DNA of 64,000 nt, from NCBI GenBank assembly GCA_951406725.2, contig OX597824.1, positions 94,550,001-94,614,000 of the forward strand, written 5' to 3'. The notes under the pieces were generated by a model. The model made no database searches and was not told where the DNA came from. It was given only the letters and a program-made list of their open reading frames with translations. Numbering within the stretch: position 1 is the first letter of the stretch; the number at the start of each line of letters is the position of its first letter. Source of the stretch: Octopus vulgaris. Lineage: Eukaryota. Shown here piece by piece: positions 3,013 to 60,937 of the stretch. The position numbers were made by a program, and so were the translations under genes.

Positions 3013-3452
3013 ATCTAGATGTTTAATAACCCTGAAACAAACTCCCTCAATTTTTTGACAGACACTGTGCTAGTAAAAGTAAAAGAGTGGAAGTAATAAT
3101 GTAGTCCTAGAAACATTATGCCAGAAACAAGATGGGATGGTCATGACTGGAATGGTTTCGATCACTGGAAAGCTTGATCAGCCACCAGTCCTTCTTGTGG
3201 TATGGTGGCTTTTGTGCCTCAATGACCCTGAGAGCTATGCTAGCATAGCACCACTGGTAGTGGAGGGCGGGACTCCCATGCCAGATAGATCAAAGGATAG
3301 GGGTCATAGCTCCACTACATTCTAGACCAGTGGTTCTCATCCAGGGTCCATATAAGATTTTGTTGTTAAATTTGTGCAATAAACTGCTTATATATTATCT
3401 ACAATGCACAGAATATTTTAACAATCTTTTTATACAATCCTTAATAATAAAC

Positions 3453-3805: not shown

Positions 3806-5044
3806 CAACAACAACAGCAACAACAACAAAAGAAACAAACAAATAAACTCATCATTTATCAAAAGTATTGCACATATACGGAATGTTATTTAAAGGTCTT
3901 CTCTCAAGTCTGTTGCCAGGTGAAGAGAGGAGGATTCCGGCAACAGCTGGATCTATTGGTAAGGAATTGGCAGATGGTCTTATTCAGTGTAACATTTAGC
4001 ATTACGCAGCAGTGAGATAATTAATCAATTATTATTAATTGCCAGTTATTAAAGCTAGCAATTTTTATCTTCCTGACAAGTCGTCATCGTCATTAGCACC
4101 ATCATCATCATCATCGTCATTATCACCATCATCATCATCATCGGCGGCGTCATCATCATTACCATCGTCACCATCTGTTTCTTTATTACCCACAAGGGGC
4201 TAAACACAGAGGGGACAAACAAGGACAGACAAACGGATTAAGTCGATTACATCGACCCCAGTGCGTAACTGGTACTTAATTTATCGACCCCGAAAGGATG
4301 AAAGGCAAAGTCGACCTCGGCGGAATTTGAACTCAAAACGTAACAGCAGACGAAATTCACCATCGTCACCATCATCATCATCATCAGACATGGCTGTGTG
4401 GTTAAGCTGCTTGCTTTGCAACCATGTGGTTTCGAGTTCAGTCCCATTGTACAGTACCCTGAATATATCTTCTACTTCAGCCCTGAGCCAACCAATGCCT
4501 TGTGAATTAATTTGGTAGATGGGAACAGTGAAAGCCAGTTGTATATATGTATGTGTGTTTGTGTTTGTCTCCACTACAACCATTTCACAACCAATATTGG
4601 TTTGTTTGCATCCCTCCCCCCCATAACCTAGCAGTTTAGAATAAAAACTGGGGTCTATTTGTTCAACTAAACACTTCAAAACAGTGCTCCAGCATGGCTG
4701 CAGTCCAGTGACTGGAACCATGTACCTGCAGCAAGACACCTGTTTCTGTTTCTCTGTCTCGTTATAACCTTTCATCATCTGACACGCAATCACCTCCTCC
4801 AATGTCCCTTCCCCTCTCAAAGAATCTTTGCCTTGCAAGTTACCTGGTGACCCTTCCAGTGCAGATGCCACATAAAAAGCACCCAGTCCACACTGCTAAG
4901 TGGTTGGCATTTGGAAGGGCATCCATCTGTAAAAACCATGCCAAAACTGACCTCACCTGTGCTAGTACCTCATAAAAAGCACCCGGTCTATTCTGCAGGG
5001 TGGTTGGTGCTAGGAAGGGCATCCAGCCATTAAAAAAAAACATT

Positions 5045-5290
5045 CAAAAATTACCCACTGCTATCTTGAAAAGGGAAGGGCACAGATTATATAACCCTCA
5101 ATGAGGTCACAAGACCTGCTAGAAATAATAATCAAATTTGCTCCAAAATTACCCACAGCTATCTTGAAAAGGGAACGGCACAGACGATATAGTCCTCAAT
5201 GCGGTCACAAGACCTGTTAGAAATAGTAGCGAACCTTGTTCAAAAATTATACTCTACTTTCTAGTGAATGGGAAGGACACTTCGGATAAT
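5045..5290. repeat. ~98-bp degenerate tandem repeat (about 2.5 copies)
   Basis: Repeated AAAATTACCCAC..CTATCTTGAAAAGGGAA..GGTCACAAGACCTG.TAGAAATA. Confidence 0.7.
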
Positions 5291-5769
5291 ATAGTCTTAA
5301 TGCGCAATGCTTAAAAAATTGACAGGGTGGTCACAGCTGGAATATCTTTGATTCAGAAAGGGGTGACCTTTATCTAAACAACAACAATACCGCTACTTGT
5401 ACTTTACGATTATGATGTAAAATTGATTGAATTAAATACTTTTTACGTTCACAACCACTAAGTCCAAGCTGTTCCATTGCTGGTTGCGCAAACTCATTAA
5501 TGACTCTCTGTCTCCTAACGATAATTAGTGTTTCCATCATGTGATTATCAATGGAGCAGCTTATCACTGGATTAGGGCCTTTTGTTTTGTTTTGTTTTGT
5601 ATCGTTTTGTTTTGTTTTTTGCTTGTTTTGGGATGATGATATGCTGTGATTTGAGAAGTAGTTTGGCTGTTGTTTTCAGTGTTTGTGTAAAAGCCGTCCC
5701 TCCCCCCCAGTCCTTTGCAGTGGCAGCAGGAGTGGTGGTCGTCATGGAGGCAGTAGCAGTTGTGGAGCC

Positions 5770-11126: not shown

Positions 11127-11333
11127 AACAACAAACAAGATGAGGACAAATATCCGTCAAATGTAAATAATGTAAATAATGTACCTAATTCCTCATCTCT
11201 TAAACATAGAACTGTATTCATTCATTCATAATTTGATTCCTTGAGTCGTTTGTCTTTTCTGCCTCAGATTAATGTTTCTAATGTCAATCCATTTTCTTTT
11301 TGTTTTTAATTCCATTTCATTTCCATTTTCCAG

Positions 11334-11445
11334 ACAAAAGTGAAAATAGTTCCTGTTCTTGGGACGGGACTCTTAATAGGAACAGCCTTGGCAGTAATTA
11401 TTCCTGAAGGCGTACATGTTATGTATTCGCATCATCACAACCATG
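11334..11445 (+). CDS. SLC39A9: ZIP9 coding exon 2 ([37 protein letters not shown])
   Basis: ttttccag acceptor at 11333, G|gtacg donor; 112 bp, phase 0 to 1. Confidence 0.93.
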
Positions 11446-13388
11446 GTACGTTGATTCTCTCTGTCTTTCTGTTTTGTTTTTCTTTTTTCTTTTTTACAAG
11501 AAGCCTTATTTTGCACATATTCTTTAACCCTTTAGCTTTGAAACCAGCCATTCCAGGCCCAAACATTCTACATGTTTTTTTTTGTTGGTTCTTTTTTTTG
11601 TTCAAACTGGCCAGATCCAGCCTTTCACACCTATCCTACAATAATGTCATTCTAAAAATAAATAATCACATCATTGAAATCTTGAAGCCAAGAGATAACG
11701 CATGATTAATTCAAGACAATTTTCATAAACAAGCTTTACATTTGACAGAGTAATCTAAATGCTAAAGGGTTAAGGTGGTATTAATTAATTGTCTCAGAGT
11801 GAAGGCACATGGCTTAGTGGTTAGGGGTGTTCAGCTCACGACCGTATGGTCATGAGTTCAATTCTCAGAGATGCATTGTGTCCTTGATCAAGACACTGTT
11901 TCACATTACTCCAGTCCACTCAGCTGGCAAAAATGTATTGTACCAGTAATTCAAACAGGCTAGCCTTGTCCTATTCTGTGTCACGCTGAATCTCCCTGAG
12001 AACTATATTAACCCTTTTGATACCAACAAAATGGTTAAAATATATAATAGAGAAACAATTCTTAACCCTTTTGATACCAATCCAGCTGAAACAGCTTCTG
12101 GCCCTATAGTACAAATGTCCTGTTTTCAAAAGTTTTGAATTAAAATTTTCCACCAAACTTTAGTCAGAATTTATGTTCCCGACACTAGCTGAATGATAAC
12201 TAAGTTATTTTACTAAATTCTTTGTTATATTTAGAATTAATTGAAAGAATCACAGAGCATCTCAACAGAAATATGGTGACAAAGGGGTTAAAAGCACTCA
12301 TGCTGGTGTCATGTAGAAAGCACTAGTAATGGTGCCACATTAACCCTTTTGATATCAACCCGGCTGAAACCGGCTCTGGCTTTGTAGTACAAATGTCTTG
12401 TTTTCATAAGTTTTGAATTAAAATCTTCCACCAAACCTTAGTCACAATTTATGTTCCTGACACTAGCTGAATGATAACTAAGTTATTTTACTAAATTCTT
12501 GGTTATATTTAAAATCAATTGAAAGAAACACAGAGCATCTCAACAGAAATACCATAACGAATGGGTACACATGTCTGCGGAGCGCTCAGCCACTTGCACA
12601 TTAATTCCACAAGGAGGCAGTTCTGCTCATTGAATCAACTGGAGCTATCGTCCTCATAACCAACGGAGTACCTGTTTACAATCATGGCTTTTTAAAAATA
12701 TTTCAACTGTCTCGGTACCACCAAACACCTAATCTGCATCATCAGAAGGTTTATATCAACTACAAACGGGCAGAGAACAAGTAAAAAGTAGATCCATTGG
12801 TATTGCATTTCTTGGACCATTCACAGCTGTTTCTGCAACATGTGGATGACAGATCACATGACAAGTGGGAAAACCTGGAGGAGAGCAATGATATTGTTGT
12901 ATTGATTATATAATGAGAGACCCCACGGTTATTTTGTCATAACCTTTGTGAACAAACACAGATACACACTAGATCGATTCCCCTATGTATAAATATACAG
13001 GTGATATGGCAGGAGGTGTTTAATTAATTCAAGAAGAAAAAATTAGCTAAAAGTACAAATGGAAAGGTAAAATGACAGTTTAATTGTAGCTTTTGACCAG
13101 ATCACTTTGTCAGTATCCTTCATTAGTCAGCGTATCTCTATCTCAATCAGACAAATGTCTGAACTGATAGACTTAAATTATTATTTAAGCTCGTTTATTA
13201 TAATATAAGCTGGAATAAATTAGGTGAGATAAAGACAGCAAGCTGGCAGAGTTGGTAGCGTCCCTGGACAAATGCTTCATAGCAGCATTTTGTCCGTCTT
13301 TACTCTCTGAGTTCCAGTTCCCCCGAAGTGGGATTCATGACAGACGATTGTAGACAGGACGAACTGACGACTTAAGCCCTCATGTATG

Positions 13389-13420
<32 letters not shown>

Positions 13421-16400
13421 TTAACATTCATTTTCCATGCTAGCATGGGTTGGACGGTTCGACTGGGGTCTGGGAAGCCAGGAGGCTGCACCAGGCTCCA
13501 GTCTGATCTGGCAGTGTTTCTACAGATGGATGCCCTTCGTAACGCCAACCACTCCGTGAGTGTAGTGGGTGCTTTTTACGTGCCACCGGCACAGGTGCCA
13601 GGGGAGGCTACCTTTGATAAATGTATTCTCAACTCCACTAGTTTGTTTGTGTATAGCTTAACAAAGCTATAACTGGTGACCCTGACGATAAAACAACAGC
13701 TCTCGCTATCGAAACAAACATGGTGGAAGACAAGACACAATCTCCACCGATACGTTGAAACCGGCCCATCTTGATATTGACAGCCCTGTTCAGGTAACCC
13801 AACCACCAAACATTGGCCACTCTGGGCAGATCACACCAACCCTTGACAAGGAACAGTACCAAAGAACTGAGTAACCACATACATGGGCATTATCATCATC
13901 ATCGTTTAACGTCCGCTTTCCATGCTAGAATGGGTTGGACAGTTCAACTGGGGTCTGGGAAGCCCAAAGGCTGCACCAGGCCAGTCAGATCTGGCAGTGT
14001 TTCTACAGCTGGATGCCCTTCCTAATGCCAACCACTCCGTGAGTGTAATAATAATTAAAATGCCTCCTTTGTTCCCATGACAGTCAGCAGTTCTGAGATG
14101 GGGGAGCTATGTAGGGCAGGATTCATGACAGATGAACTGTAGACAGGAACTTTGATGCGGGCTAGCTAGGGAGTTGGTCGGCAGCAAAATGGACTTCTGG
14201 AGAGAGAAAGGAAATAAAATAATGTTAGCAGTGAGCGTTAAAGGAATCTGAATTAACCAAACAGAAATAACTGATGACCTAAACCCTGGTACGTAAAGTA
14301 ATAAACCAGCATGGGTTGGATGTTAAACAATAATGATGATGATGATGATGCATGTGTGTGTGTGTCTGTGTGTCCATGTTTATTTATGACTGTTAGAGTG
14401 AGTGCCAGGGTTGATTTGTTCAATAAACTCCCCTTCGAGGTGGTGCTCCAGAATGGCTGCTGTCCAATGATTGAAACAAGTAAAAGATTAACATTACACG
14501 TTGTGCAGTGGAAACAATTGAAACAGCAGATCAAACTGGATTGAAAAAGATGAACAGGCAACCATTCAAACTGACAAGTCAAGACAAGTAGACACTGCAG
14601 TTGCAGCTTGTACAATGGACACCGTTCCTCAAAGACAGGCTGCAACAAAAAAGTGCTTCTGGCCGAAGCAACAACACACTGGCCAAACACTTGTTTGTTG
14701 ATTAAGTGTTTGCTTAAACTAACAAAAGGTGTTTCTTGGAAGATCTGGATAATAAAACGTTTCAATTAATGAAAACCTGTGGGTGCAAGTGACACGACTG
14801 GGAAGTTTGTTCTTGGTTGTCTCTTGACTCTCCTCGAAAATCTGACAGTTTAACACCTGTTTAGATTCTTGTTGGAGTGGGAAAGCTTGATATGTCACCT
14901 GGACTACAAACTGTATTATATCTGCAAAGGAAAAAGAAATAGTTTTGTCATTATCATCATCATCATCATCATCCTCATCTCAGAAATTATTCATAGATGA
15001 ATGTAGCACACAGTTCGTTAGTGATTGCATATATATCATCATCATCATCATCATCATCCGCTTTCCATGCTGGCATGGGTTGGATGGTTTGACTGAAGAC
15101 TGGCAAGCCAGGAGGCTGTATCAGGCTCCAATCTGATCTGGCAATGTTTCTACAGCTGGATTCCCTTCCAAACGCCAACCACTCCATGAGTGTCGCGGTT
15201 GCTTTTTACATGCCACCGGTACAGGTGCCAGTCAGGCGATACTGGCATCAACCATGCTTGAATGGTGCTTTTTACATGCCACTGGCACAGGAGCCAGTCA
15301 AGCGGCACTGTCATCAACCATGCTTGGATGGTGCTTTTTACATGCCACTGGCACAGGAGCCAGTCAAGCGGCACTGTCATCAACCATGCTTGGATGGTGC
15401 TTTTTACATGCCACTACCATCATCATTGTATTTTATGTCCTCTTCTCCATGCTGGCATGGGTTGGACAGGATTTTTTGCAAGTCTTTTTATGGTCCAATG
15501 AAGTTCCTGATATTGTTCCTTTCAGTGTAACCTCTTTAAACTTGCAAGAATAAGGCATGGATTCTAAAACCTGAGATACACACAATATCGACGACAATGA
15601 TGAAAATATATATATATATCGGAAAAATTAATTTTCTTCTTGGAACATGAAGATTAATATTCCAAATAATTGTTAATATGTGGGGGCACAATGGCCCAAT
15701 AGTTAGGGCAGCGGACTCTCGGTTGGAGGATCACAGTTTCGATTCCCAGATCGGGCGTTGTGTGTGTTTATTGAGCGAAAACACTTAAAGCTCCACGAGG
15801 CTCCGTCAGGGGTTCGTGGTGACCTCTGTTGTACTCTTTCGCCCCAACTTTCTCTCACTCTTTCTTCCTGTTTCTTGAGTAATGCTGCGATGGACTGGCG
15901 TCCCGTCCAGCTGGGGGGAAGGAACACATACACCACAGAAACCAGGAAACCGGGCCCATGAGCCTGGCTAGGCTTGAAAAGGGCGCATAAATAAAATAAA
16001 ATAATAAATTGTTAATATTGTCGTTATTGTGAACATTTTGTTTGACTTTTATTTAATGAAATTTTTGTCTTTGGCTTCCATTTCTTCTTCTTCTTCCTTT
16101 GCAGTACATAGTCACAGCATAGAGAAAATGGACGTGAAAGAGGTCGTTGCAAAAGCTGCCATTGCACATTCTTCAATACATGATGAACACTCACACAACA
16201 CACACACCGACTCTGGCGGCACAGAAAACCATGAGAATGTCCACAGTTTGATAGGAGTGGCACTGGTTGCCGGCTTCATCACAATGTTGCTTATTGACCA
16301 ACTGTTTGGCGGCTCTCATGCTCACTCTGCCGCAGGTAAGCGATTAGCATTTGGGGAAGCAACAGGTATGGCTGTTGTTTAGTGATGGTGAGGTGAGTGT

Positions 16401-19400
16401 GACGATGCTTGAGTGGAGTGTGACCATGTTTGAGTAAAATTGTAATGATATTTGAGTGGAGTGTGATTGTATTTGATTGAAATAGGATGATGTTTGAGTC
16501 GAGTGTGACCATATTTGAGTGGAGTTTGATGTTTGAGTGGAGTGTGACCATACTTGAGTGAAATGTGGTGATGTTTGAGTGGAGTGTGACCATATTTGAG
16601 TGAAATGTGATGTTTGAGTGGAGTGTGACCATATTTGAGTGAAATGTGATGATGTTTGAATGGAGTGTGACCATATTTGAGTGAAATGTGATGATGTTTG
16701 AGTGGAGTGCAATTATATTTCATTGAAATGTGATATTTGAGTGGCGTGCAACCATATTTGAGTGAAATGTGATGCTGTTTGAGTGGAGTGTAACCATATT
16801 TGAGTGAAATGTGATGCTGTTTGAGTGGAGTGTAACCATATTTGAGTGAAATGTGATGATTTTTGAGTGAAATGTGATGATGTTTGAGTGGAGTGTAACC
16901 ATATTTGAGTGAAATGTGATGATGTTTGAGTGGAGTGCAATTATATTTCATTGAAATGTGATGATATTTGAGTGGCGTGTAACCATATTTGAGTGAAATG
17001 TGATGCTGTTTGAGTGGAGTGTAACCATATTTGAGTGAAATGTGATGCTGTTTGAGTGGAGTGTAACCATATTTGAGTGAAATGTGATGATGTTTGAGTG
17101 GAGTGTGACCATATTTGAGTGAAATGTGATGATGTTTGAGTGGAGTGTGGTTATATTTGAGTAAAATGTGATGATGTTTGAGTGGAGCACATTTATATTT
17201 GAGTGAAATGTGATGTTTGAGTGGAGTGTGATTATATATGATTGAAATGTGATGTTTGAGTGGAGTGTGACCATATTTGAGTGAAATGTGATGATGTTTG
17301 AGTGGAGTGTACTTTGGTCATACTTGAGTAGTGTTGTTGGTGGTGGTAAGGAACAACTATCAATACAAAAGGGGAGGTTGGTGATGAGAGTATTGAGTCT
17401 AATGATAGCTGAGAGGGATTAGTGTATTGTTTCATTTTTTTCTCTACCATTTCTTTTTAACTAACGTCTTCTTTATGCTTCCACAGATCCTGAACACAAC
17501 CAAACAACTGTGCAGAACAGAAATAAATTCACAGCTACTCTAGGTTTAGTGATACACGCTGCTGGTAAGTCGGTTGTTGTTTATAAAGTTTCTGGCAAAG
17601 AACTGTAATTGCAGGTAGACGGAAAGCTGTAGAAGGGTAGAATGTGTGTTTGAAGTACAGATCACCTCTCTACCCATCCATGTCTCTCAAGATGAGCGCC
17701 TTGAGGAAAGCTGTAGAAGAGTAGAATGTGTGATTAAACACCTGTAATAGTTGTTACATAACTAATCAACTGTGAAGGTTAGGGTTAGGGTCTGTGTTTG
17801 TCCCCACCACCCTCACTCGACAACTGATGCTGGTGTGTTTACGTCGCCCCTGTAACTTAACATTTCGCCAAAAGAGACTGATAGAATAAGTACTAGGCTT
17901 ACAAAGAATAAATCCCGGGTCCGGGGTTGATTTGTTCGACTAAAGGTGGTGCTCCAGCATGGCCACAGTCAAATGACTGAATCAAATGAAAGAATAAAGC
18001 AACAGCCCAATATCTAAGCCTCCTCTCTACTCCAACTAATGAATATTCATCTCTGTGTAATTATGCTGGTATTGGTTTTAAGCCCCATTATAACTACAGC
18101 TGTGATGTAGTAAACAACTATATATTTATTATTGACTGTTCTCTCTTTGAATTTATGCCATTATTTGCAGGGTAACTGTGTTATCCCAAGATGTTCCATG
18201 TTTTAAGCTGGTGGCATTGTTTCCAGTGTAACTATTTTAACCCTTTCGTTACCATAAGTTTTGAAATAAAATCTTCCACCAAATCTTAATCACAATTTAT
18301 GTTCCTAACACTGGCTTAATGATAATTAAGTTATTTGACTCAATTCTTTGTTATATTTAAAATTAATTGAAAGAAACACAGAGCATCTCAACTGAAATAT
18401 GGTGACAAAAGGGTTAACAAATTATTAATTTAACCCTTTTAATACCAACCTGGCTGAAACAGGCTCTGGCTCTGAGTATAAATGTCTTATTTTCAAAAGT
18501 TTTGAATCAAGATCTTCCACCAAACCTTAGTCACAATTTATGTCCCTAACACTAGCTTAATGATAACTAAGTCATTTTACTAACTTCTTTGTTATATTTA
18601 AAATTAATTAAAAAAAACACAGAACATCTCAACAGAAATATGGTAACAAAAGGGTTAACAAATGATTAATTTAACCCTTTCGATACCAACCTGGCTGAAA
18701 CAGGCTCTGGCTCTGAGTACAAATGTCTTGTTTTCAGAAGTTCAGAATTAAAATCTTTTACCAAACCTTTGTCACAATTTATGTCCCTAACACTAGCTTA
18801 ATGATAACTAAGTTATTTTACTAAATTCTTTGTTATATTTAAAGTAATTGAAAGAAACACAGAGCATCTCAACAGAAATATAGTAACGAAAGGGTTAATT
18901 AATCTGGTGTTTGGGACATGAATTAATATGGAATTTTGAAGAACGGTTTTAATTCAGACCATTTCAAAACAGGAAGTTTGTATCTTAGGACCAAGGGCAG
19001 TCTCTAAGGCAGATTGGTCACAAATGGTTAACATTTGACTGAAAGCTTTTACTTCCTCAGCCAAACCCTGACCTGTATCTCTTGCTGTTCTATATTTTCA
19101 GCTGACGGCATTGCCCTGGGCGCTGCTGTCACAATGTCTGAGGACCATGTCACTTTGATCGTCTTTCTGGCTATCATGTTACACAAGGTAAGACACCTGT
19201 TGTTTCTTAATTACCACTAATAAAAAATTTTTTTTAACGAGATGTAACTCGTCAAACAACTGATTAGATCCATGTTGAGAAAGTAAAACAATTACAGCAT
19301 AAGTAGAGATTCCCATATCCACTTGTACCTTTTTTCATTTACTACAACTGCTGCTGCTACTACTTCTACTACTACTACTTCTACTACTACTACCACCACC

Positions 19401-19474
19401 ACCACTACTACTACTGCCACCACCACACTACTACTACTGCTACTACTACTGCCACCACTACTACTACTACTGCC

Positions 19475-19516
<42 letters not shown>

Positions 19517-22212
19517 GCTACTACTACTACTACTACTACTGCCACCACTACTACTACTACTACTGCCACCACCACACTACTACTACTGCTACTACTACTA
19601 CCACCACCACCACTACTACTACTACTTCTTCCTTCTCCTCCTCCTCCTCCTCCTCTACTGCTGTTACAACTTCTACTCTCACTCCCTTCCCCTATTGTCT
19701 CTGTTCTCTGTCCCTGCATTGGCAGCTTGTCTTCTTCAATGTCATTTAGACAATGCAGACAAAGGAAAATTAAAAAGTAAAAAGTAAAAAAAGCAGGTAT
19801 GTGAAATACAAACAAAAAAACAGAAAATAAAATATAAAAAAAGCAAAAAGTTAACCTGCCAGCTATGAGCTCCTGACATCAGCATTCATACTTGACCTAT
19901 ATGGGATGAAAACAAATTATATTTATAACCCTGGACCATAAATATATACATGTAGACATACATACAGTCATTCACACACACACACATACATACATACATA
20001 TATTTCTTTACTACCCACAAGGGGCTAAACATAGAGGGGACAAACAAGGACAGACAAAGGGATTGAGTCGATTACATCGACCCCAGTGCGTAACTGGTAC
20101 TTAATTTATCGACCCCGAAAGGATGAAAGGCAAAGTCGACCTCGACGGAATTTGAACTCAGAACGTAGCGGCAGACGAAATACCTATTTCTTTACTACCC
20201 ACAAGGGGCTAAACATAAAGGGGACAAACAAGGACAGACAAAGGGATTGAGTCGATTACATCGACCCCAGTGCGTAACTGGTACTTAATTTATCGACCCC
20301 GAAAGGATGAAAGGCAAAGTCGACCTCGACGGAATTTGAACTCAGAACGTAGCGGCAGACGAAATACCTATTTCTTTACTACCCACAAGGGGCTAAACAT
20401 AAAGGGGACAAACAAGGACAGACAAAGGGATTGAGTCGATTACATCGACCCCAGTGCGTAACTGGTACTTAATTTATCGACCCCGAAAGGATGAAAGGCA
20501 AAGTCGACCTCGACGGAATTTGAACTCAGAACGTAACGACAGACGAAATACGGCTACGCATTTCGCCCGGCGCGCTAACGTTTCTGCCAGCTCGCCGCCT
20601 TTACATACATACATACATACATGACTGTGTCTAGATATGCAGCTATTTGCATGAGAATACATACATAAAACAAAGCATGCAAATCTGCACATATAAATAC
20701 ATGATGATGGCTGTCCCCTCGTTATCGAGTATGGCCATTGCATGAAGCTTAACTGTTACTGGTGCTGTGATCGAATGTGACTTTTTAGCCCAGCCAAAGA
20801 TCTACAATGTCTTGTGCAGAATTGGCAACTAAAACCTTTACCGGTAATAGCCGGCTGTAGTTGTAACTGGGCTTCATGTACCTTTACATGTCGTTTAAGT
20901 CCTCCTGCCGAATTACACTCTCTTCCACATGCCCGACAGATATGATTAGTACGGTGTGTTACACCACCACCAGTGGCCAGGTGTCACTCATCTGTCTCGC
21001 TTTATGACTACGAAGATGACTCTTGAGTCCAGCTTTACTGAGGCAGGGTCTTGCACTAACACTGCATGTCAGCATCATAGGAAGACCCTTCCCATCTGGA
21101 AGTGTAACAGCGATGCCCTTCCTCACATCCCTCCTTACTTTCTCAATATACATACATACATACACACCCACCCACCCTGTTGATGTTGGAATTCCAATGA
21201 AGGAACCTTGAATCTTGGTTGGAAACCGGTTCTTTCTCTATTGGCAAGAAATCTTGAAATAAAACTGAATAAGGACATGCAATAACGTATGTACGTACGT
21301 ACAATGCATATGTGTGTACGTACTTGCATATATACCATTAATCAAACAAACAAACAAGAGAAAATGGGAGCATGGATATTGAGTTGGAATTCCTTTATTT
21401 CATTTGTTGGGCCTGGTGCAGCCTTCTGGTTTCCCAGACCCAGTTGAACCGTCCAACCCATGCTAGCATGGAAAACAGACGTTAAACGATGTTGATGATG
21501 ATGATGACATACGTTTCAGTATTCTGCAACATGTAACAGTTGGAATAAAGGGGTACCAACTCAGTGACTATGGTCCTCTTCTCTTATTATTGTTGTGCGT
21601 ATTGGATTATGTCATAGCCCCACTTTGGCTGTGGAGGACTCAGTGTACATGTGACAGTGGGGTTTTAATGTGATTAACATTAGACAGGGCATGGGGGCTC
21701 CGAAAGGGGTCTCAGGGAGTAGCATCCAAGTTGACTTTGCCTTTCATCTGTCCGACCCGTGCAAGTACAGGAAAAAATGGACTTTAAATGACGACGACGA
21801 TGATGATGATGATATATTCTTTTCTTTATTTCTACCAGGCACCAGCCTCATTTGGTTTAGTATCATTCCTCATGCTTGAAGGTTTGGAGAGAGCTCGAAT
21901 CAAAAGACATTTGCTTGCCTTTTCTGTCTCGGCGCCGCTGTTATCGATTCTCACATATTTGGGATTGAGCCAAGTAAGTTCTTCCTCATACTCTTTTACT
22001 CTTTTACTTGTTTCAGTCATTTGACTGTGGCCATGCTGGAGCACTGCCTTTAATCGAGCAACTCGACCCCGTGATTTATTCTTTGTAAGCCCAGTACATA
22101 TTCTATCAGTCTCTTTTTGCCGAACCGCTAAGTAACGGGGACGTAAACACCCCAGCATCAGTTGTCAAACGATGTTAGGGGAACAAACACAGACACACAA
22201 ACACACACACAC

Positions 22213-22270
<58 letters not shown>

Positions 22271-22993
22271 GACGGGCTTCTTTCAGTTTCCGTCTACCAA
22301 ATTCACTCACAAGGCTTTGGTCGGCCTGAGGCTATAGCAGAAGACACTTGCCCAAGATGCCATGCAGTGGGACTGAACCCGGAACTGTGTGGTTGGTAAG
22401 TAAGCTACTTACCACACAGCCACTGGGTTTTTGGTGTTTTATTGTGTGTATGCATGTAGGGGGGCGGGCTTCATCAATTGAGGGCAGGGTCAATGCCCAT
22501 AACTCTTTTCAAGGGGATCTACAACACTGATAGAAAGAAATTCCCTGAAAACCAGAGATCTGACCTGAGTGCTTATGCCAGCATAGATTCTGCCAATGAC
22601 ATCCAATGTCCAAATTCTGGTGTTAAACCAGAAACAGGTCACATCCAAAATTCCAACCAAAATTTACTCCGTTTTATAAACTGATTCATTTTTCCTAATA
22701 TTTTCTGCCTCAGGCCACCATTAATTTCCTTGGATTTTACAGTTTCATTCAGGCAGGGAGGCCAGTTTTGGATTAATGTCTATTTATTTATTTAGTTATT
22801 TATTATTAGTTGAGGTGCAGGCATGGCTGTGTGATTAAGAAGACTGCTTCTCTAATGCAAGGTTTGCAGATCAGTCCCACATCTCAGCATCTTGGGCGTC
22901 TGTCTTCTTCTGTCACCCTGGGAGGACTAAAGTCCTGTGACTGTATTTGGTAGACAGAAACTGAAATAAGCCCTATATATATATATATGTGTA

Positions 22994-23056
<63 letters not shown>

Positions 23057-23208
23057 TTAGATATATATCAGTTACAATCAAGGGTAAAATTTATATAAGA
23101 TTTTATCAAGTAGCTAGCATGTAAAAACCAATTTCAGTAAAAAATTAATACAAAGTAATTAATTTTAGAACTATAATTATAAAATTATAAAATTGCTCTT
23201 ATTATAAT

Positions 23209-23260
<52 letters not shown>

Positions 23261-24244
23261 GTATGTATATATATATATTATATATATATACAAAATTGAG
23301 AGGATTGATCACTAAAAGTGGACAGCCTGTATACTAGAAATAGATGTCAAAATCGTCATTTTCCATGGAGAATGTGTTCTCAAGAAAAAATTCAGCAAAA
23401 AACCAAAGTTTAAAAATAAGCAAAACAAATGAAAATATACGAAATAAAAAACGATTACCTATGTACTAATTAGTTTCACTTGTTAATAATTTACGTATAT
23501 AAATACATAAACATCTGCAAGATCATCAGCATAGTCTGTCGTTTATGAAATACAATTTCTAGAACTAGATACAGGACGCTCGACCGAAATCCAGCATTGC
23601 ATAGAGTTCCACAAATTATATTTATGTGTATCTTTCAAATGCCTTCACTTTGGCGCGCTGAGATCGGAAATTACTCTGCAGTTAATAAACTACAGTAGTC
23701 AATTTACCGGTTAGAGAACATTTTTTTTATTTAAAATTAAATAAGGGTAGAAATCGATATTAATCAATTAAAACCAGTGGTCTAGTATATTTTAAAAAAT
23801 CTGAAGATTAGAAATGTTGCCCATTTCTCCTCACATAGTAGATCAATAGTAATTTCAAATCAGATGCTAGGCATGAAATCAATTCAATGAATGTTACCTG
23901 CTCTCATAACGAATCTGTTGTGACTTTGAACAGCTAATATAAAGAAACCTTGTTGTTTTCTTTCTTTATTTCATTTCTTTTCATTTCTTTTCTTTTTCTA
24001 GCAAAATAAAGAAACCCTGTCCGATCTTCATGCAACTGGACTTGCCCTTCTATTCAGTGCCGGAACTTTCCTGTATGTGGCCACGGTACACGTCTTGCCT
24101 GAAGTGGCCAACACTCCAGCGCAAACCACACACGATGGCGTGACCATCATTCGAGAACAGAAAGGTTTTAACAAGAAGGAACTTTTTACATTTGTGCTAG
24201 GGTCAGCCATTCCTGTAATGTTGGCTCTTGGCCACAAGCATTGA
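11334..24244 (+). CDS. SLC39A9: Zinc transporter ZIP9-like, spliced, 5'-partial: join(11334-11445,16105-16335,17487-17564,19102-19187,21839-21973,24002-24244)
   Basis: Six AG/GT-bounded exons join in frame (phases 0-1-1-1-0-0). They give [94 protein letters not shown] and C-terminal GHKH*, all recognisable ZIP9 motifs. The first exon (TM1) was not located. Confidence 0.96.
11528..11769. mobile_element. piggyBac-type MITE
   Basis: TTAA|CCCTTTAGC ... GCTAAAGGG|TTAA. Confidence 0.85.
11803..12672 (+). mobile_element. tRNA-derived SINE family D, interrupted at a TTAA site by piggyBac-type MITEs (12066-12287, 12344-12565)
   Basis: Its 3' part matches the uninterrupted related copy at 55938-56310(-) on both sides of GAACTA..TTAA|GGGTACAC; the MITEs have TTAA-CCCTTT ends. 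Confidence 0.8.
15682..16006 (+). mobile_element. tRNA-derived SINE with V-domain-like segment
   Basis: tRNA-like head, CTGCGATGGACTGGCGTCCCGTCCAG (resembles the V-SINE domain), A-rich tail, 12-bp TSD AATTGTTAATAT (15668-15679 / 16007-16018). Confidence 0.75.
16105..16335 (+). CDS. SLC39A9: ZIP9 coding exon 3 (His-rich loop plus TM3)
   Basis: ctttgcag acceptor, G|gtaag donor; 231 bp; [28 protein letters not shown]. Confidence 0.93.
16390..17312. repeat. Minisatellite, 42-bp unit built of two ~21-bp TTTGAGTG subunits
   Basis: CCATATTTGAGTGAAATGTGATGATGTTTGAGTGGAGTGTGA repeated about 20 times, filling ZIP9 intron 3. Confidence 0.95.
17487..17564 (+). CDS. SLC39A9: ZIP9 coding exon 4 ([26 protein letters not shown])
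   Basis: ttccacag acceptor, G|gtaag donor; 78 bp; too short for the ORF track, read directly. Confidence 0.94.
18241..18894. mobile_element. Three tandem piggyBac-type MITEs (18241-18413, 18434-18654, 18675-18894)
   Basis: Each is TTAA|CCCTTT...AAAGGG|TTAA; same family as 12066-12287. Confidence 0.88.
19102..19187 (+). CDS. SLC39A9: ZIP9 coding exon 5 ([29 protein letters not shown])
   Basis: ttttcag acceptor, AAG|gtaag donor; 86 bp, phase 1 to 0. Confidence 0.95.
19340..19660. repeat. (CTA)n/(CCA)n/(CTC)n trinucleotide array
   Basis: Read directly. Confidence 0.95.
20001..20600 (-). mobile_element. SINE family A concatemer: one head plus three 184-bp units
   Basis: Unit boundaries at 20001, 20185 and 20369; units nearly identical. 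Confidence 0.92.
20701..21145 (-). mobile_element. RTE-like LINE 3' fragment with three C2H2-type fingers, frameshifted
   Basis: [21 protein letters not shown] / [21 protein letters not shown] / [23 protein letters not shown], then a short 3' UTR ending in CATCATCAT. Confidence 0.7.
21839..21973 (+). CDS. SLC39A9: ZIP9 coding exon 6 ([45 protein letters not shown])
   Basis: tctaccag acceptor, CAA|gtaag donor; 135 bp. Confidence 0.95.
21990..22423 (-). mobile_element. SINE family B copy starting ~16 nt after the exon 6 donor
   Basis: Matches 3453-3805. Further copies at ~28010-28362(+), 29989-30330(+), 44876-45274(-), 53461-53852(-), 62230-62592(-). Confidence 0.88.
23459..23534 (-). ncRNA. 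Type I hammerhead ribozyme motif, antisense in the last ZIP9 intron
   Basis: Minus strand reads CUAUG-CUGAUGA-U-CUUG..CAAG-U-GAAA-CUAAUUAG-UA-CAUAG. Perfect 5-bp stem I, palindromic stem III, GUA triplet, U-U at the base of stem II. Confidence 0.75.
24002..24244 (+). CDS. SLC39A9: ZIP9 terminal coding exon ([35 protein letters not shown]...ALGHKH*)
   Basis: Long polypyrimidine tract plus tag acceptor at 24001; TGA at 24242-24244; followed by an AT-rich, transposon-free 3' UTR-like stretch. Confidence 0.95.
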   Translation, partial: QNKETLSDLHATGLALLFSAGTFLYVATVHVLPEVANTPAQTTHDGVTIIREQKGFNKKELFTFVLGSAIPVMLALGHKH

Positions 24245-32252: not shown

Positions 32253-33500
32253 TTAATAAAATTGTGACAATGTTAAGACAGAAAATAAGCAATATTTTGA
32301 GTCATAATTTCGTGTCTTTATATCCAGGATCAATGCCCCGTTACTTAGATGCACCCGTGAATATTGTCCGGAAATTTCGATCTTCCTGATCTTACTGGAA
32401 ACGATGTCTTTCTCTACCAGTTGGTTGAGTGATACCAACTGGACCTGTAATGTTAATAGACACAACATGAACGAAAGGGAATCTTCGTAGTTGCTCAAAA
32501 GGCTATGAACAACGGCCAAAGTCCTTCAAATCACATCCTACCAATGGCATAGCCAGGTGGAGAGAGATCTAGCCCGGGCCAAAATCTCTCTGGAGTTTGA
32601 AGTCGAAGACATTGAATAAATGAATCCCTTCAACAAAATAATGAATTCCTCCTTCCAGAGGAGAAAATAAATTGAGTCCTCGTGAGAACAAATATATAAA
32701 AACAGATGTGTCGCCCGAAAGATAAGAATAGGTAAGTCAATCTCCGGAGGTGCTGGGAAATTACTAAAAGTTGTGTAGGGCCAGTGACATGGTTAGAGAG
32801 TGTGCCGCCATGGAGAACCCTTCAGTTTGTCACCCCCGTCCTCGTTCGCTCCCCATATAAGATTTATACACCAGACCCAAAAGTGTCGCTCCCATGAAAA
32901 CGTCGCCCGCTGCGGACTTCACTCCTCAGTCACTCTATTTATCCTAGTGTGTAGAATATCATTGGGTTTGTTATTCATAAAAGCGGGCGATAATGGATCG
33001 ATGAAGGCCTTGTTCCACAGTGAACTCAAGATTCGTAAACATTCTGCTATTCTTTCAATCGATGAAGATTTTATCCTGACGATCGTAGGACGAGCCCCAT
33101 TTCTAGTTAAAGGCTTTGAACCAGTGACTGTTGTTCTCGAGTTGTTTTTGCTGTCGCTGTTGAGCGAAGCGGTCTTCGTCCCAGAGCTCACAAGATGGGA
33201 GAAGTCCGAAACGTGGTCCTTTGCTATTCGTAAGACCCGCAGAAGAGAAATCAGGTCAACCCTCGACACCGAGAGCATCGACGGATGGATGAATGCGCAT
33301 CCAGGCTCAGTGGTTGCGTAGGAAGTCGGGGACTGTTTTTTGCTGCTGGAGCTATTTCTCAAGGATGTTAACCTGGACAAGGGTATTGGGAACCTGGGTT
33401 ACTACGCTGGTAATATTTAAACAAACGGTAATACGAATACGTTTGATACTGAATGACCGAAGTAGGTGCCAGAATAGTGTTGAGTAAAGCAAATGTCTAC
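32253..33500 (-). pseudogene. Unidentified degraded coding-like island
   Basis: ORFs 32919-33380 and 32253-32519 are in the same minus frame, with only four stops over ~375 codons; no microsatellites; no motif recognised. Confidence 0.35.
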
Positions 33501-46756: not shown

Positions 46757-47690
46757 AACTGGCGAGCATGGCAGAAACATTAACATGCCAGGTAAAATGC
46801 TTAGTGGTATTTCGTCTACCGCTACGTTCTGAGTTCAAATTCCGCCGAGGTTGACTTTGCCTTTCATCCTTTCGGGGTCGATTAAACAAGTACCAGTTAC
46901 GCACTGGGGTCGATATAATCGACTTAATCCATTTATCTGTCCTTGTTTGTCCCCTCTGTGTTTAGCTCCTTGTGGGTAGTAAAGAAATAGATATTTCGTC
47001 TGCCGCTACGTTCTGAGTTCAAATACCGTTGAGGTCGACTTTGCCTTTTATCCTTTCGGGATCGATAAATTAAGTACCAGTTACACACTGGGGTCGATAT
47101 AATCGACTTAATCCGTTTGTCTGTCCTTGTTTGTCCCCTCTGTGTTTAGCCCCTTGTGGGTAGTAAAGAAATAGATATTTCGTCTGTTTTTACGTTCTGA
47201 GTTCAAATTTCACCATGGTCGACTTTGCCTTTTAGCCTTTCGGGGTCGATTAAATAAGTACCAGTTACGCACTGGGGTCGATATAATCGACTTAATCCGT
47301 TTGTCTGTCCTTGTTTGTCCCCTCTGTGTTTAGCCCCTTGTGGGCAATAAAGAAATAGGTATTTCGTCTGTTTTTACGTTTTGAGTTCAAATTCCGCCGA
47401 GGTCAACTTTACCTTTTATCCTTTCGGGGTCGATTAAATAAATACCAGTTACACACTGGGGTCGATATAATCGACTTAATCCATTTATCTGTCCTTGTTT
47501 GTCCCCTCTGTGTTTAGCTCCTTGTGGGTAGTAAAGAAATAGATATTTCGTCTGCCATTACGTTCTGAGTTCAAATACCGCTGAGGTCGACTTTGCCTTT
47601 TATCCTTTTGAGGTCGATAAATTAAGTACCAGTTGCGTACTGGGATCGATGTAAGCGACTGGCTCTCTCCTCAAAAATTTCTGGCCTAGA
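46757..47690 (+). mobile_element. SINE family A concatemer: one head plus five units
   Basis: Unit starts at 46808, 46992, 47176, 47360 and 47544 (period exactly 184). Confidence 0.92.
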
Positions 47691-48060: not shown

Positions 48061-48643
48061 TACATATACATATATATATATATATACATATACACACACA
48101 CTACATGTGTACGTGTGTGTCAAAGTTTCATCAGTCAGCCTAGTGAGTCTATGAATGCGAATTTCTCAGCATGTCACCCTGACTGACATGCGCACGCGTA
48201 TACCTAGACGGGGAAGTGATATTTCAACTTTTGTTGTTGTTGTTGTAAATGTTATTTTAACCTATTTTAGATCAAGTTCTTGCTGTTGATGCCATTAGAG
48301 CAGCGAACATTAAAGGAAAGAAAAGAAAAGGAATAAAAAAATAAACAACAGACAAAAATAAAAGACAAATCGAGTAAAGAGTTTGTTTTCCTGGACTTAA
48401 AGAACGCGAAACTTCGCAAAAGACAACACTGCAACTCTTATGAAAAGCAGAATAAATTCAGGGACACCTTCTGCATAAAAATAGAATAACTATTCGCGAC
48501 AAAATCAGTATCATCAAAAGCAATCTTTATAATCAACATAATGTGGATATCTTTGTTTGAACACTGAATACTACGTTATTTAGCTTGAGAGAACCTTTCA
48601 TGTGGACGCACGGTGCATAAAAGCATACGCACATATACACACA

Positions 48644-48645
<2 letters not shown>

Positions 48646-48706
<61 letters not shown>

Positions 48707-48904
48707 CGCTTGCAGATGGGAATAGTTTGCTTTGTGCGCTGGAACTGCCAAATGAAGAGATTTTGGTATATTGTGTCTCTTCTGGCAGCGAGATTTGGCT
48801 GGTATGCAGCGAGCGGGGTTCTGTCACTGAAGAGATGCAATGCGTCGAAATCAGGTGATCTAACAGTTCCAGTGCCCATAGCAAACGATTCTCGTCTGCC
48901 AACA

Positions 48905-48963
<59 letters not shown>
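48646..48963 (+). repeat. ~320-nt fold-back: (CA)n arm, 36-bp stem, 24+6-bp stem, (TG)n arm
   Basis: 48712-48747 pairs with 48864-48899; 48759-48782 with 48829-48852; 48783-48788 with 48821-48826. Confidence 0.9.
48821..48866 (+). ncRNA. Type I hammerhead ribozyme motif inside a long fold-back element
   Basis: CUGUCA-CUGAAGA-GAUGC(AAU)GCGUC-GAAA-UCA(GG)UGA-UC|UAACAG. Intact core, G10.1-C11.1 pair, AUC triplet, stem I 5 of 6 paired. Confidence 0.75.
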
Positions 48964-48965
<2 letters not shown>

Positions 48966-50719
48966 GTATATAAAATAGAATAATTAATTTAGTGTTCTAT
49001 TTAATGGGGAAGAACATTTCCAGAATAACAGCCGGAAAGTTGAAAAGCATTATGAGGCTGTGAAGATCAATTAATCATCAATCAAGCTGTAAGTGAAAAC
49101 TCCAGGAGGAGAACGGAAGCAAAAGGCCATCCATAATTGTTTCTAGTTTTGACACAAGATGAGCAATTTTGAGGGGTGGGGCAAATCAATTACATTGAAA
49201 CACCACTCTCAGTAACTGAATGGTGCTTTATTTTGTCGATCCCAGAACGAAAGACAAAATTGACCTCAGTGGTATTTGAACTCAGGACTTAAAAAGCCGG
49301 AGGGAATGGTGCTAAGCATTTTGTCCAATGCGCTAACAATAATAATCCTTTCTACAATACGCACAAGGCCTGAAATTGTGGGGAGGGGCAAATTGATTGA
49401 CATTGATCTCACTGCACAATTAATACTTATTCTATCAACCCCGAAGGGATGAAAGACAACGTTGACCACAGTGGAATTTGAACTCAGAAGCACTTAGTCC
49501 GGGGTGTAAACAATTATGCCAGGTCGCCGCCTTAATCACAATAATAATAACGATATTTGATTTAGACGCAATCTTAAAGGAAGGAGATTAGTTAGGACTG
49601 TGGGCCCTCGTCCTTGACTGGCACTATATTTTATAAATCCAGAAAAATGAAAGGTGAGGGTGACCTCAGCGTGATTTGAACCCAGAATGTAAAGAGCTGG
49701 GACAAATACCATTCTTTTATTCTCTTATTCTTTTACTTGCATCAGTGATTTGACTGCGGCCATGCTGGAGCACTACCTTTTAGTCGAACAAATCAATCCC
49801 AGGACTTATTCTTTGTAAGCCTAGTACTTATTCAAACCATCTCTTTTTGCCAAACTGCTAAATGACGAGGACGTAAACACACATCGATCATCAAGCAATG
49901 GTAGGGGGACAAACACAGACACAAATAATAAATACATATATACATACATACATATATATAGAGAGAGAGCAAAAACGCAATAGAGGGCCTTAAAACATTC
50001 GGACAGATAGACGACACAAAGGCGGACAAGAGAGACAACAATTAGAAGGGCAGGCATAAAAAGACGGGTCGTTCTTGGCTTTCTTTCATCAGTCAAGTAC
50101 CAGAAGTCACGACCATTTCAGACAGTTACACTTGAGACGGTTCGATCTGGTTGTCCCCAAAAATGTCTAAGCTAAGAGCATTAGGCTCCTTTGGAAGAAA
50201 GCTAGCAAATGTGTACAGCAACAAAGACGAAAAAATAACAAACAAACAAAAAACGGAGAACATGGTACACAATTACCAATACAACAACAAGAAATAACAA
50301 CAGGCGTCTTTCGACTAAGAACGATTCAAACTGAGCTTGCGTGTATGAAGTAAAAGCTAATATATATACGATGGGCTTCTTTCAGTTTCCGTGTCTACCA
50401 AATCCACTCACAAGGCTTTGGTTGGCTCGAGGCTATAGTAGAAGACACTTGCCCGAAGTGTCACGTAGTGGGACTGAAAACGGAACCATGTGGTTGGAAA
50501 TATACAATATACTGAAAATAGCATTACTAAACACTACACATTTCAGATCTAAGAATCGTGGTGATAAATGGGTAAATGCTGCCCACCCGTAAATTTTCCG
50601 CACGTTGATAAAAGAAAACTTTGTAAACCTTTCGTAGTTCTTTGAACTTGTTCTTTTTTTATGTTAAAAGTACAGCATAATGTTATGGCTGTGTCAAGCT
50701 AGTTTACCTTCACACACAC

Positions 50720-51499: not shown

Positions 51500-52858
51500 C
51501 TTTTCTACTCTAGGCACAAGGCCCGAAAATTTGAGGGAAGGGGCCAGCCGATTAGATCGACTCCAGTATGCAACTGGTACTTAATTTATCGATCTCGAAA
51601 GGATGAAAGGCAAAGTCGACCTCGCTCGAATTTTAACTCAGAACACAGAGGCGGACAAAATACCACAAAACATTTTGACCGGCGAGTTAACAATTCTGTC
51701 CGTTAATAACTATTTCAAATTTTTGCTGAGGGGGAGGTGAGGATGAGTTGATTACATCGACCCCAGTATTCAACTGGTACTTATTTAATCAACCCCGAAA
51801 GGATGAAAGACAAAGTCGACTTCAGCGGAATTTGAACTCAGAACATAGCGATGGGCGAAATACTGCTAAGCCTTTCGCCCAGCGTGCTAACGATTCTGCC
51901 AGCTTGCCACCCAATTCTGTCCATTAATAGTGGTTTTAAATTTTGCTACAAGGGTAGCAACTTTGGGGGAGGTGACAAGTCGATTACATCGACCCCGGTG
52001 CTTAATTTATCGACCCAGAAAGGATGAAAGGCGAAGTCTATCTCGGTGGGATTTAAACACAGAACATAGCAAAATACCTATTTCTTTACTACCCACAAGG
52101 GGCTAAACACAGAGGAGACAAACAAGGACAGACAAACGGATTAAGTCGATTACATCGATACCAGTGCGTAACTGGTCCTTAATTTATCGACCTCGAAAGG
52201 ATAAAAGTCAAAGTCGATCTCGGTGGAATTTGAACTCAGAACGTAGTGGCAGATGAAATACATATTTCTTTATTACCCACAAGGGGCTAAACACAGAGGG
52301 GACAAACAAGACAGACAAACGGATTAAGTCGATTATATCGATCACAGTGCGTAACTGGTACTTAATTTATCGACCCCGAAAGGATGAAAGGCAAAGTCGA
52401 CCTCGGCGGAATTTGATCTCAGAAAGTAATGACAGACGAAATACCTATTTCTTTACTACCCACAAGGGGCTAAACACAGAGAGGACAAACAAGGACAGAC
52501 AAACGGATTAAGTCGATTACATCGACCCAGTGCGTAACTGGTCCTTAATTTATCGACCCCGAAAGGATGAAAGGCAAAGTCGACCTCGGTGGAATTTGAA
52601 CTCAGAACGTAGCGACAGACGAAATACCTATTTCTTTACTACCCACAAGGGGCTAAACACAGAGGGGACAAACAAGGACAGACAAAGGGATTAAGTCGAT
52701 TATATCGACCCCAGTGCGTAACAGGTACTTAATTTATCGACCCCGAAAGGATGAAAGTCAAAGTCTACCTCGGCGGAATTTGAACTCAGAACACAGCGGC
52801 GGACGAAATACCACAAAACATTTCGCCCGGTGTGCTAACGATTCTGCCAGCTCGCCAC
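51500..52858 (-). mobile_element. SINE family A cluster including a four-unit concatemer (52079-52858)
   Basis: Repeated ~183-bp units with GACGAAATACCTATTTCTTT junctions. Confidence 0.88.
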
Positions 52859-59669: not shown

Positions 59670-60937
59670 CTTTTTTTTTCTTTCTTCTTTCAAATTTGCT
59701 TCCATTTCTTGCCGAGTGTCTTCCCGACTCCTAGGGCAAAGAAACTCATAGTGTATATTGGTAGGCCATTAAACCAAACTCAGTAGTTCGTTCATTTTTT
59801 TTATTTTTTTTAAAGTTAAATTAAAATACATGAGCAGCAACAGTTCTCACATCGACAATGCTCTTCTCAATACGTGTGATGTACCAGTTAAGACAATCTT
59901 TTGCACTTCTTGCAGGGATGGTAAGCCAGGGATCATTCTCATATAATTTTCGGTTCCCTTCTTGATCATTCCTAGTGCTCCTACGATCACTGGTATTGTA
60001 ACCGCCTTGAGATGCCACATTTTCTCAATTTCAATGAGTAGGTCTTTATATTTTCTGAGCTTGTCAAACTCTTTCGCTGAGATATTATGATCACAGGGGA
60101 TGCTCATGTCGATCAATAAGCAAACTTTATTGTTTTGGTCTTTCACAACAATATCTGGTTTATTGGCCTTGATGGTTCGGTCTGTATGTACTGGAAAGTC
60201 CCACAGAATGGTTACATTTTCTCCTTCAGTTACAGCCTCAGGGTGGTGATTATACCACTTGTCGGCAGTTTTGATATTGTAATGCCGACTTATTAGCCAG
60301 TGTAGATATTGGCCAACTCTGTCATGTCTTAATTTATACTCCACTGGTGCTAAGACTTTACATCCAGAGATTAGGTGGTCCACTGTTTCAATCATGTCGT
60401 TGCAGAATCGGCATTTTGGGTCTGCTCCATTTTTCATCACATTGGCCTGGTAGTTCCGGGTTAATAGGCTTTGATCTTGAGCAGCCAGGATGAAACCTTC
60501 GCTCTCTGCTTTTAGCCCTGAGCTCCGTAGCCACTGATGGGTTTGCTTCTGGTCAACATCAGCTTGTTTGCTGCGGGCCACATATTTGCCGTGCAGAGGT
60601 TTCTCCTCCCACCTATCAGCCAATTGCTCGTGCGCTTTTTTCGTTGCCATTATTTTTACCTTCTTTGCAACAATAGTTGCCGTACTTCCCTCGGGTTGTT
60701 CAGTTTGGGTATCCTACACGAGATCAATAGCAAATTTGTTGCTTTCCTTTATGATAGAATGAAGCTTCTTTCGTCTCTCGTGATTTTCCACGAGCTTTAG
60801 CATCCAGTCATTCGTTATTTCGAGATATTTGGTCAGTCCAATTGTGGTTGTTTTGTAAGCTAGTTCAAATTGGATCAGGCCTCGACCTCCTTGGGCTCTG
60901 GGAAGGTAAAGGCGATCTACGTCTGCCTTTGGGTGGT

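Follow-up and report, generated by a model that had tools for sequence, protein, structure and literature searches.

The window, i.e. the whole 64-kb stretch of octopus DNA that was analysed, carries a hammerhead motif at 48821-48866 on the + strand, embedded in a probable insertion at 48488-48971. The exons of a ZIP zinc-transporter-like gene occupy 11310-24200 (+) and end about 24 kb upstream of this locus; the first of them gives a PF02535 match below the cut-off, further exons are presumptively placed, by their motifs, near 16.0-16.4, 17.5, 21.9 and 24.1 kb, and the gene is putatively ZIP9-like. Overlapping open frames of 174 amino acids (+) and 159 amino acids (-) lie in non-repetitive sequence at 32797-33398, with no Pfam or usable Atlas match to either, and an open frame of 288 amino acids at 59847-60713 (-), with a weak zf-RVT match, represents the C-terminal region of a retrotransposon of the non-LTR type. 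A 184-nt unit that resembles an octopus SINE forms tandem arrays at 20001-20551, 46808-47660 and 51997-52812, with degenerate copies at 47563-47679 and 49246-49700.

The hammerhead motif

The motif is complete and of type I. Stem I (48821-26/48861-66, with one C-A pair) encloses the core CUGAAGA (48827-33), stem II (48834-38/48842-46), GAAA (48847-50) and stem III (48850-53/48856-59), and cleavage is predicted after 48860. The assignment draws on an Rfam alignment, folding and a family alignment, and the core, stems, cut site and single C-A pair of stem I are as an earlier, sequence-only reading had described them. The definition of a type I hammerhead, i.e. a CUGANGA, GAAA and UH core with stems I-III in type I order, applies throughout, at an Rfam score below the gathering score. 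The check with Infernal or RNAmotif models that the same reading had proposed was favourable as to position, since the Hammerhead_1 alignment within the 202 nt searched falls exactly on 48821-48866 and a hammerhead descriptor, composed after the motif had been seen, matches this single site in the window (on the + strand only) and no site in 200 dinucleotide shuffles; it was unfavourable as to score, the alignment reaching a weak 17.4 bits (E 0.11) against a gathering score of 34. An Rfam scan of 2.5 kb around the locus returned no Hammerhead_1 at E ≤ 5, only miRNA models on microsatellites, every one of them below the gathering score.

Judged from its sequence, the motif is a genuine hammerhead. 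Even outside the rod it is expected to be a weak ribozyme. The hammerhead fold of the isolated motif lies 10.3 kcal/mol above its own best fold, in a model that gives no score to core contacts; hammerhead cores are in general underrated by nearest-neighbour models. Compared with the repeat family to which the motif belongs, the window copy has G>A changes at 48862 and 48863 that weaken stem I and a C>G change at 48854 that disrupts the palindrome of stem III, and its fold energy ranks ninth among 28 intact copies.

A dispersed repeat of about 340 nt

A genome search with 48706-48907, the fold-back that surrounds the motif, gave at least 41 matches including itself, with the best 40 of 141 candidates scored. 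The search for copies suggested by the sequence-only reading thus succeeded for the right arm, as the 40 other matches are essentially confined to the right-hand 125 nt (72-83% identity), and failed for the full rod, none of these best 40 of 141 candidates covering the whole 202 nt. The actual unit is a monomer of about 340 nt, 18 of 26 measurements of the period having given 320-350 nt; the rod of about 190 nt that had been taken for the unit is two copies head to head. The proposal of a small non-coding mobile element with a real hammerhead holds for the family, which is dispersed and without an ORF, its longest stop-free frame across 20 copies being 94 amino acids. Family membership and monomer size are direct observations.

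First-look candidates for the family number 519-751, and its copies are likely to number in the hundreds. An exact 17-mer outside the ribozyme occurs 20 times, compared with 0 for a control; four of these sites (L058, L066, L068 and L070) are without a family match and could be chance, tiny remnants or another repeat. Median divergence from the commonest letters of the family is 19.5% (15.3% for the window copy). Young copies were sought and none was found, as the 34-nt majority motif of the family has no exact match in the genome and near-full-length paralogues are at best 76-78% alike among the best 40 candidates scored per search. The alignments suggest that the family is old and that its mobility has probably been lost.

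The ribozyme is conserved within this family. Core columns are 82-97% conserved, with the exception of N7 at 63%, and the core is intact in 28 of 61 other copies. In 55 sequences, 81.6% of stem cells are paired, compared with 21-42% for slid partners, and compensatory changes on both sides are observed in all four stem II pairs, in one of six stem I pairs and in none of the four in stem III. Five covariation measures were compared with 500 shuffles: the percentage paired and the covariation score exceed all 500, whereas two of the five, the number of pairs and the number of pair types, do not (497/500 and 266/500). The family has a palindromic stem III, as do the hammerheads described in passages of PMC4209133 and PMC7229834 that cut as dimers. 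Alignment columns 32-45 reveal at least two subfamilies with different, fully compensated versions of stem II, and a third variant in some copies. Two intact cores lie one period apart at L051; an array of two full units was not among the loci sampled. A genome-wide Hammerhead_1 search, in which 73 candidates were scored, yielded six sites over the Rfam cut-off (L119-L124), all from other families and none overlapping the core of the ~340-nt family; the type I hammerheads of L120, L121 and L124 resemble one another, with an insertion of about 70 nt in helix II.

With a monomer within 150-450 nt, one type I hammerhead and no ORF, the family agrees in size with the non-LTR retrozymes, of which mussel repeats of 350-390 bp and axolotl repeats of 330/350 bp are metazoan examples in passages of Cervera and de la Pena (2020; PMC7229834). 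The features shared with metazoan non-LTR retrozymes, as far as these are set out in passages of that paper and of Li et al. (bioRxiv 10.64898/2026.07.22.740005), are the type I hammerhead, a short palindromic helix III, the lack of an ORF, a self-paired monomer of a few hundred nucleotides and co-occurrence with Penelope-like elements (PLEs). However, the octopus family takes the form of old, scattered monomers and partial tandems, often accompanied by an inverted copy, rather than of long arrays, and its helix III is longer, with 4 bp and a 2-nt loop.

Insertion geometry and its likely origin

Twenty natural copies of near-full length were combined into a family profile, which matches the window in three segments, at 48488-48636 (-), 48692-48787 (-) and 48767-48918 (+). 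The left copy of a 15-nt direct repeat (48478-48492, +) overlaps by a few bases the 3' end of the element, where the 3' part of an inverted copy begins (48488-48636, -; profile positions 265-416; nhmmer 88.8 bits) with a long, 'tailed' 3' end. This copy is interrupted by a (TG)n expansion, read as (CA)n on the + strand, at 48637-48705, and continues as the 5'-truncated left arm of the rod (48706-48782, -), so that the arm extends as a minus-strand copy to about 48488. The left arm starts inside the hammerhead core and is therefore without a complete core, and there is no minus-strand descriptor match. It is followed by the sense copy (48783-48907, +), which is 5'-truncated, 15% diverged from the commonest letters and ends at a second (TG)n expansion (48908-48964, +), beyond which lies the right copy of the 15-nt repeat (48972-48986, +). 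The inverted (CA)n and (TG)n flanks that had been claimed are present, at 48637-48705 and 48908-48964, and alignment to the profile shows the 'cage' around the hammerhead to be the same repeat once more, in inverted orientation. Both copies have decayed since insertion, largely at CpG.

The 15-nt repeats are identical at 14 of 15 positions and give the best score of 56 loci (13, compared with at most 8 for controls), with a right boundary that was chosen by hand after the repeat was known; they are likely to be the target-site duplication of the whole insertion. At other loci such repeats are sparse, only 5 of 56 scoring 10 or more, some of them within simple sequence. Both microsatellites occupy the same site of the element, where six or more TG units are present in only 3 of 69 copies, namely both arms here and L023. 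Because a shared tract is this rare, either a common template or later conversion has to be assumed: the template of the insertion likely already carried (TG)n, which would account for the tract in both arms, and the sense copy would have been primed or broken there, while conversion between the arms is an alternative source.

The layout of this locus recurs in the family. Head-to-head pairs are observed at 22 of 60 loci by one count and, among the 66 loci with family matches (out of 75 given, nine being without), at 28 loci compared with one tail-to-tail pair; they are also observed at 7 of 20 loci, the window included, in a set chosen by the 17-mer outside the ribozyme. The inverted copy cages at least 11 of 13 core columns at seven other loci (L008, L012, L015, L030, L039, L056 and L060), and a caged hammerhead is, on these alignments, common in the family. 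Partial tandems are observed at 28 of 60 loci. The 3' ends fall into two classes, with peaks at profile positions 90-99 (18 matches) and 130-139 (23 matches), about 35-40 positions apart, and in 17 of the 21 inverted loci for which both ends were mapped a short end is combined with a long one, as split at position 115 and classified by reading rather than by program; the exceptions are L026, L035, L046 and L065.

This geometry, with an adjacent 5'-truncated head-to-head copy and an optional tail, often at one end, is that of PLE insertions. Passages in PMC8557442 describe for these a partial tandem, an adjacent inverted 5'-truncated copy and a tail of 30-40 nt that is often one-ended; passages in PMC3846280 give head-to-head as the commonest arrangement of PLE copies, with duplications of 8-10 nt, and a passage in PMC4209133 notes opposite-strand hammerhead pairs 100-700 bp apart. 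In the portions of these three papers that concern insertions of endonuclease-bearing (EN+) PLEs and the hammerheads of their pseudo-LTRs (pLTRs), the points in common with the octopus family are 5' truncation, a partial tandem, a head-to-head copy, the optional 30-40 nt tail at one end, a target-site duplication and a hammerhead with a palindromic helix III. The differences are that the octopus family has no RT/GIY-YIG frame and no sequence match to PLEs sampled from the genome, and that the flanking repeat at this locus is 15 nt long, compared with the 8-10 nt of the rotifer examples in PMC3846280.

We consider it very probable that 48488-48971 goes back to a single old insertion of the repeat, in which a sense copy and an antisense copy, the latter 5'-truncated, were joined head to head; the enzymes responsible were likely the reverse transcriptase and endonuclease (RT/EN) of a PLE, acting in trans. 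In the mobile phase, tandem transcripts would have cleaved themselves at the type I hammerhead, probably as dimers through the self-complementary stem III, and would have given linear or circular RNA of unit length; PLE RT/EN would then have copied this RNA, either priming twice or folding back, which would account for the inverted copy, the optional tail of about 35 nt at one end and the target-site duplication. In passages of PMC11167929 a PLE hammerhead is reported to cut only in the presence of the element's protein and to be dispensable for insertion in vitro, for which reason a role of cleavage in this scheme can only be inferred. The points that stand against this explanation are that no partner PLE was matched among 36 stretches, that no array of full units was seen at the loci sampled, that the + strand folds better than the - strand, that one cluster of transversions is unique to this locus, that the (TG)n tract is rare, that two of the five covariation measures fall short of the shuffles, that duplications are sparse and that young copies may have escaped searches in which the best 40 candidates were scored. 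The fallback offered by the sequence-only reading, namely that a Penelope-like repeat was duplicated in inverted orientation and then decayed, comes close to the data.

PLEs are plentiful in this genome. There are at least 148 GIY-YIG matches, with one confirmed combination of RT and GIY-YIG. Comparison of the family profile with 36 PLE stretches, taken from 6136 first-look candidates, gave only a biased low-complexity match and a match at E 6.6, and an autonomous partner was not found among the 36; these sampled stretches carry their own, different pLTR hammerheads. A reading frame with RT plus GIY-YIG is absent from the family copies, and the PLE partner acting in trans is one that we infer. 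A young PLE family was observed at L101, L102 and L104 (G000:C16 and C17), with a frame of 781 amino acids for RT/GIY-YIG, an upstream frame of 333-378 amino acids, flanking repeats 99% identical, and in each a hammerhead-like core of the U3-A8 variant with a palindromic helix III. At L103, an inverted copy of 766 nt, 100% identical between 2321-3086 and 4718-5483, lies beside a PLE-like frame and represents a very recent inverted insertion.

The strongest competing explanation, although clearly the less likely, treats the family as a solo pseudo-LTR that derives from an autonomous PLE, either extinct or outside the sample; its copies would then be 5'-truncated ends of PLEs. Every mark of the layout is PLE-like, and passages in PMC4209133 describe pLTRs of PLEs as bearing type I hammerheads, mostly as dispersed single motifs. 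However, what lies upstream of full monomers (28 of 60 loci) is the family's own 3' part, at a period of about 340 nt, the monomer is without a long frame, and the 36 PLE stretches neither match the family nor share its hammerhead. 

It is improbable that the rod arose after insertion, through a local inverted duplication or a deletion between two neighbouring copies, and that it may serve, if transcribed, as a hairpin RNA that is a source of siRNA or a substrate for editing. Such an origin would suit the arms, which differ at 24 of 77 positions and have only four non-majority letters in common, the rare (TG)n tract found in both, and the lack of the 3' part in the sense copy; against it, a single 15-nt direct repeat flanks the entire structure, and head-to-head pairs turn up at 28 of 66 loci, outnumbering tail-to-tail pairs by 28:1.

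One old PLE-type insertion therefore remains the preferred explanation for this locus, which is likely a fossil. The family is likely a dead, PLE-mobilized, non-LTR retrozyme-like repeat: its sequences mostly fit the definition of a metazoan non-LTR retrozyme, and it appears to insert like a PLE without being one. As an ORF-less hammerhead repeat bearing the full insertion signature of PLEs, the family is a better find than the single locus. In the text of the 2026 preprint (10.64898/2026.07.22.740005) a PLE origin of animal retrozymes is argued from co-occurrence and pLTR phylogeny, and the insertion geometry would be independent evidence that PLE enzymes mobilize animal retrozymes in trans. 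In the papers searched, no description of such a family in cephalopods was found. The main text of the octopus repeat annotation (PMC13282606), in the part available, contains no 'hammerhead', 'ribozyme' or 'retrozyme', and the corresponding part of the preprint text contains no 'octopus' or 'mollus', its four invertebrates being named only in supplements.

Folding of the rod and the question of a switch

The fold-back that had been claimed was borne out, at -95 kcal/mol (z -7.8; none of 200 shuffles equally stable). A recount of the two stems selected in the sequence-only reading gave the same figures, i.e. 30 Watson-Crick pairs, three G-U pairs and three mismatches in the outer stem (48712-47) and 17, six and one in the stem at 48759-82. 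Because the arms are homologous, they pair along one ungapped diagonal (i+j=97611), the 77 positions of which comprise 53 Watson-Crick pairs, ten G-U pairs, six A-C pairs and eight transversions. That reading had taken a 10:1 bias towards G-U as a sign that pairing of the + strand RNA was under selection. The excess does not survive in the whole arm, where the ratio is 10:6 (p 0.45 two-sided, 0.23 one-sided), and it had appeared because five A-C pairs, at 48707, 48709, 48748, 48749 and 48751, lie outside the two stems and were omitted. Six of the ten G-U pairs are C>T changes at CpG sites of the family, and among 33 other arm pairs none has a G-U excess at p<0.05 and one has an A-C excess (p 0.02). 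Folding favours the + strand over the - strand by 23 kcal/mol, the biggest gap among ten inverted regions chosen by hand; 9 kcal/mol of this stems from the unpaired central 46 nt, and random flipping of the 16 transitions equals the gap in 14% of 400 trials (p 0.14). On the full diagonal, the 33 other arm pairs and this flip control, selection for G-U on the + strand was rejected. The rod is likely a by-product of the insertion, and an RNA of the + strand, if transcribed, is predicted to form the rod with the ribozyme off. At the level of assembled contigs, no RNA run contained more than 0.04 of the sequence words looked for; two runs presumed to be RNA yielded 0 contigs, and two others yielded short pieces of other copies, none of their contigs spanning this locus, a result that speaks neither for nor against transcription.

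Near-isoenergetic ON and OFF states had also been expected, of the kind that RNAfold would reveal. Forced-structure folding puts the hammerhead-formed ensemble 18.7-19.3 kcal/mol above the rod, compared with 10.3 kcal/mol for the free motif, and the cage hence adds about 8-9 kcal/mol to the cost of the hammerhead fold. The alternative self-fold proposed for the blocking strand does exist, as a local left-arm hairpin at 48745-48788 (+; -17.1 kcal/mol alone), but does not itself form the core: the hairpin state lies 9.4 kcal/mol above the rod, and a further 7.7-8.7 kcal/mol separates it from the hammerhead fold. With no alternative fold within a few kcal/mol of the rod, bistability at equilibrium was rejected. 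For prefixes up to 48833, no fold is lower in energy than the hairpin, and the findpath saddles that separate it from the rod are 11-28 kcal/mol high (upper bounds); in this model it could act as a co-transcriptional kinetic trap.

The outer 6 bp of this hairpin derive from a 6-mer that is present twice in the family, and the inner 8 bp from a cluster at 48754-48760 (+) that contains three transversions, at 48754-58, and is the exact reverse complement of 48776-48782. Only one of 67 stem III octamers has three or more transversions, namely that of this locus, and the three-transversion hairpin is the best point in favour of a switch. However, passages in PMC5453318 describe how template switching creates such hairpins in a single event with no selection required, and the cluster is likely one short template switch beside the junction, made without selection.

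That the host has come to use a PLE-type insertion as a kinetic ribozyme switch, in which the left hairpin folds first, the hammerhead may cut before the rod closes and ADAR could shift the balance, is very improbable. The order of folding, the barriers to the rod, the cluster behind the inner stem (seen in 1 of 67 copies), the intact core and the better folding of the + strand speak for it. Against it, the hammerhead fold is still 7.7-8.7 kcal/mol from the hairpin state, an intact core is not special, being kept in 28 of 61 other copies, decay in the window copy has affected both stem I and the palindrome of stem III, there is no G-U bias, and template switching makes such hairpins unselected. 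We would give equally little credence to its wider form, a de novo self-cleaving switch, dependent on transcription rate or ADAR, that the host kept after two mutational accidents, first the caging insertion and then a template-switch hairpin that is anti-antisense. 

Avsunviroidae and other rod-like RNAs mask a hammerhead inside a long fold-back, and the octopus rod resembles them in that its core is paired off in this way; the masking strand, however, is a second genomic copy in antisense, the core is present in one polarity only, the junction is unique to the locus and nothing points to replication as RNA. An endogenized viroid-like RNA with the ~190-nt fold-back as its replicon would explain the masking and is nevertheless hardly conceivable, given a junction found in none of the 40 other matches (best 40 of 141 candidates), a core in a single polarity and two arms that are pieces of the same ~340-nt repeat. 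About four in ten sampled insertions are fold-backs, and the family would thus be a ready source of long dsRNA if its copies were transcribed; A-to-I editing may be heavy in this genome.
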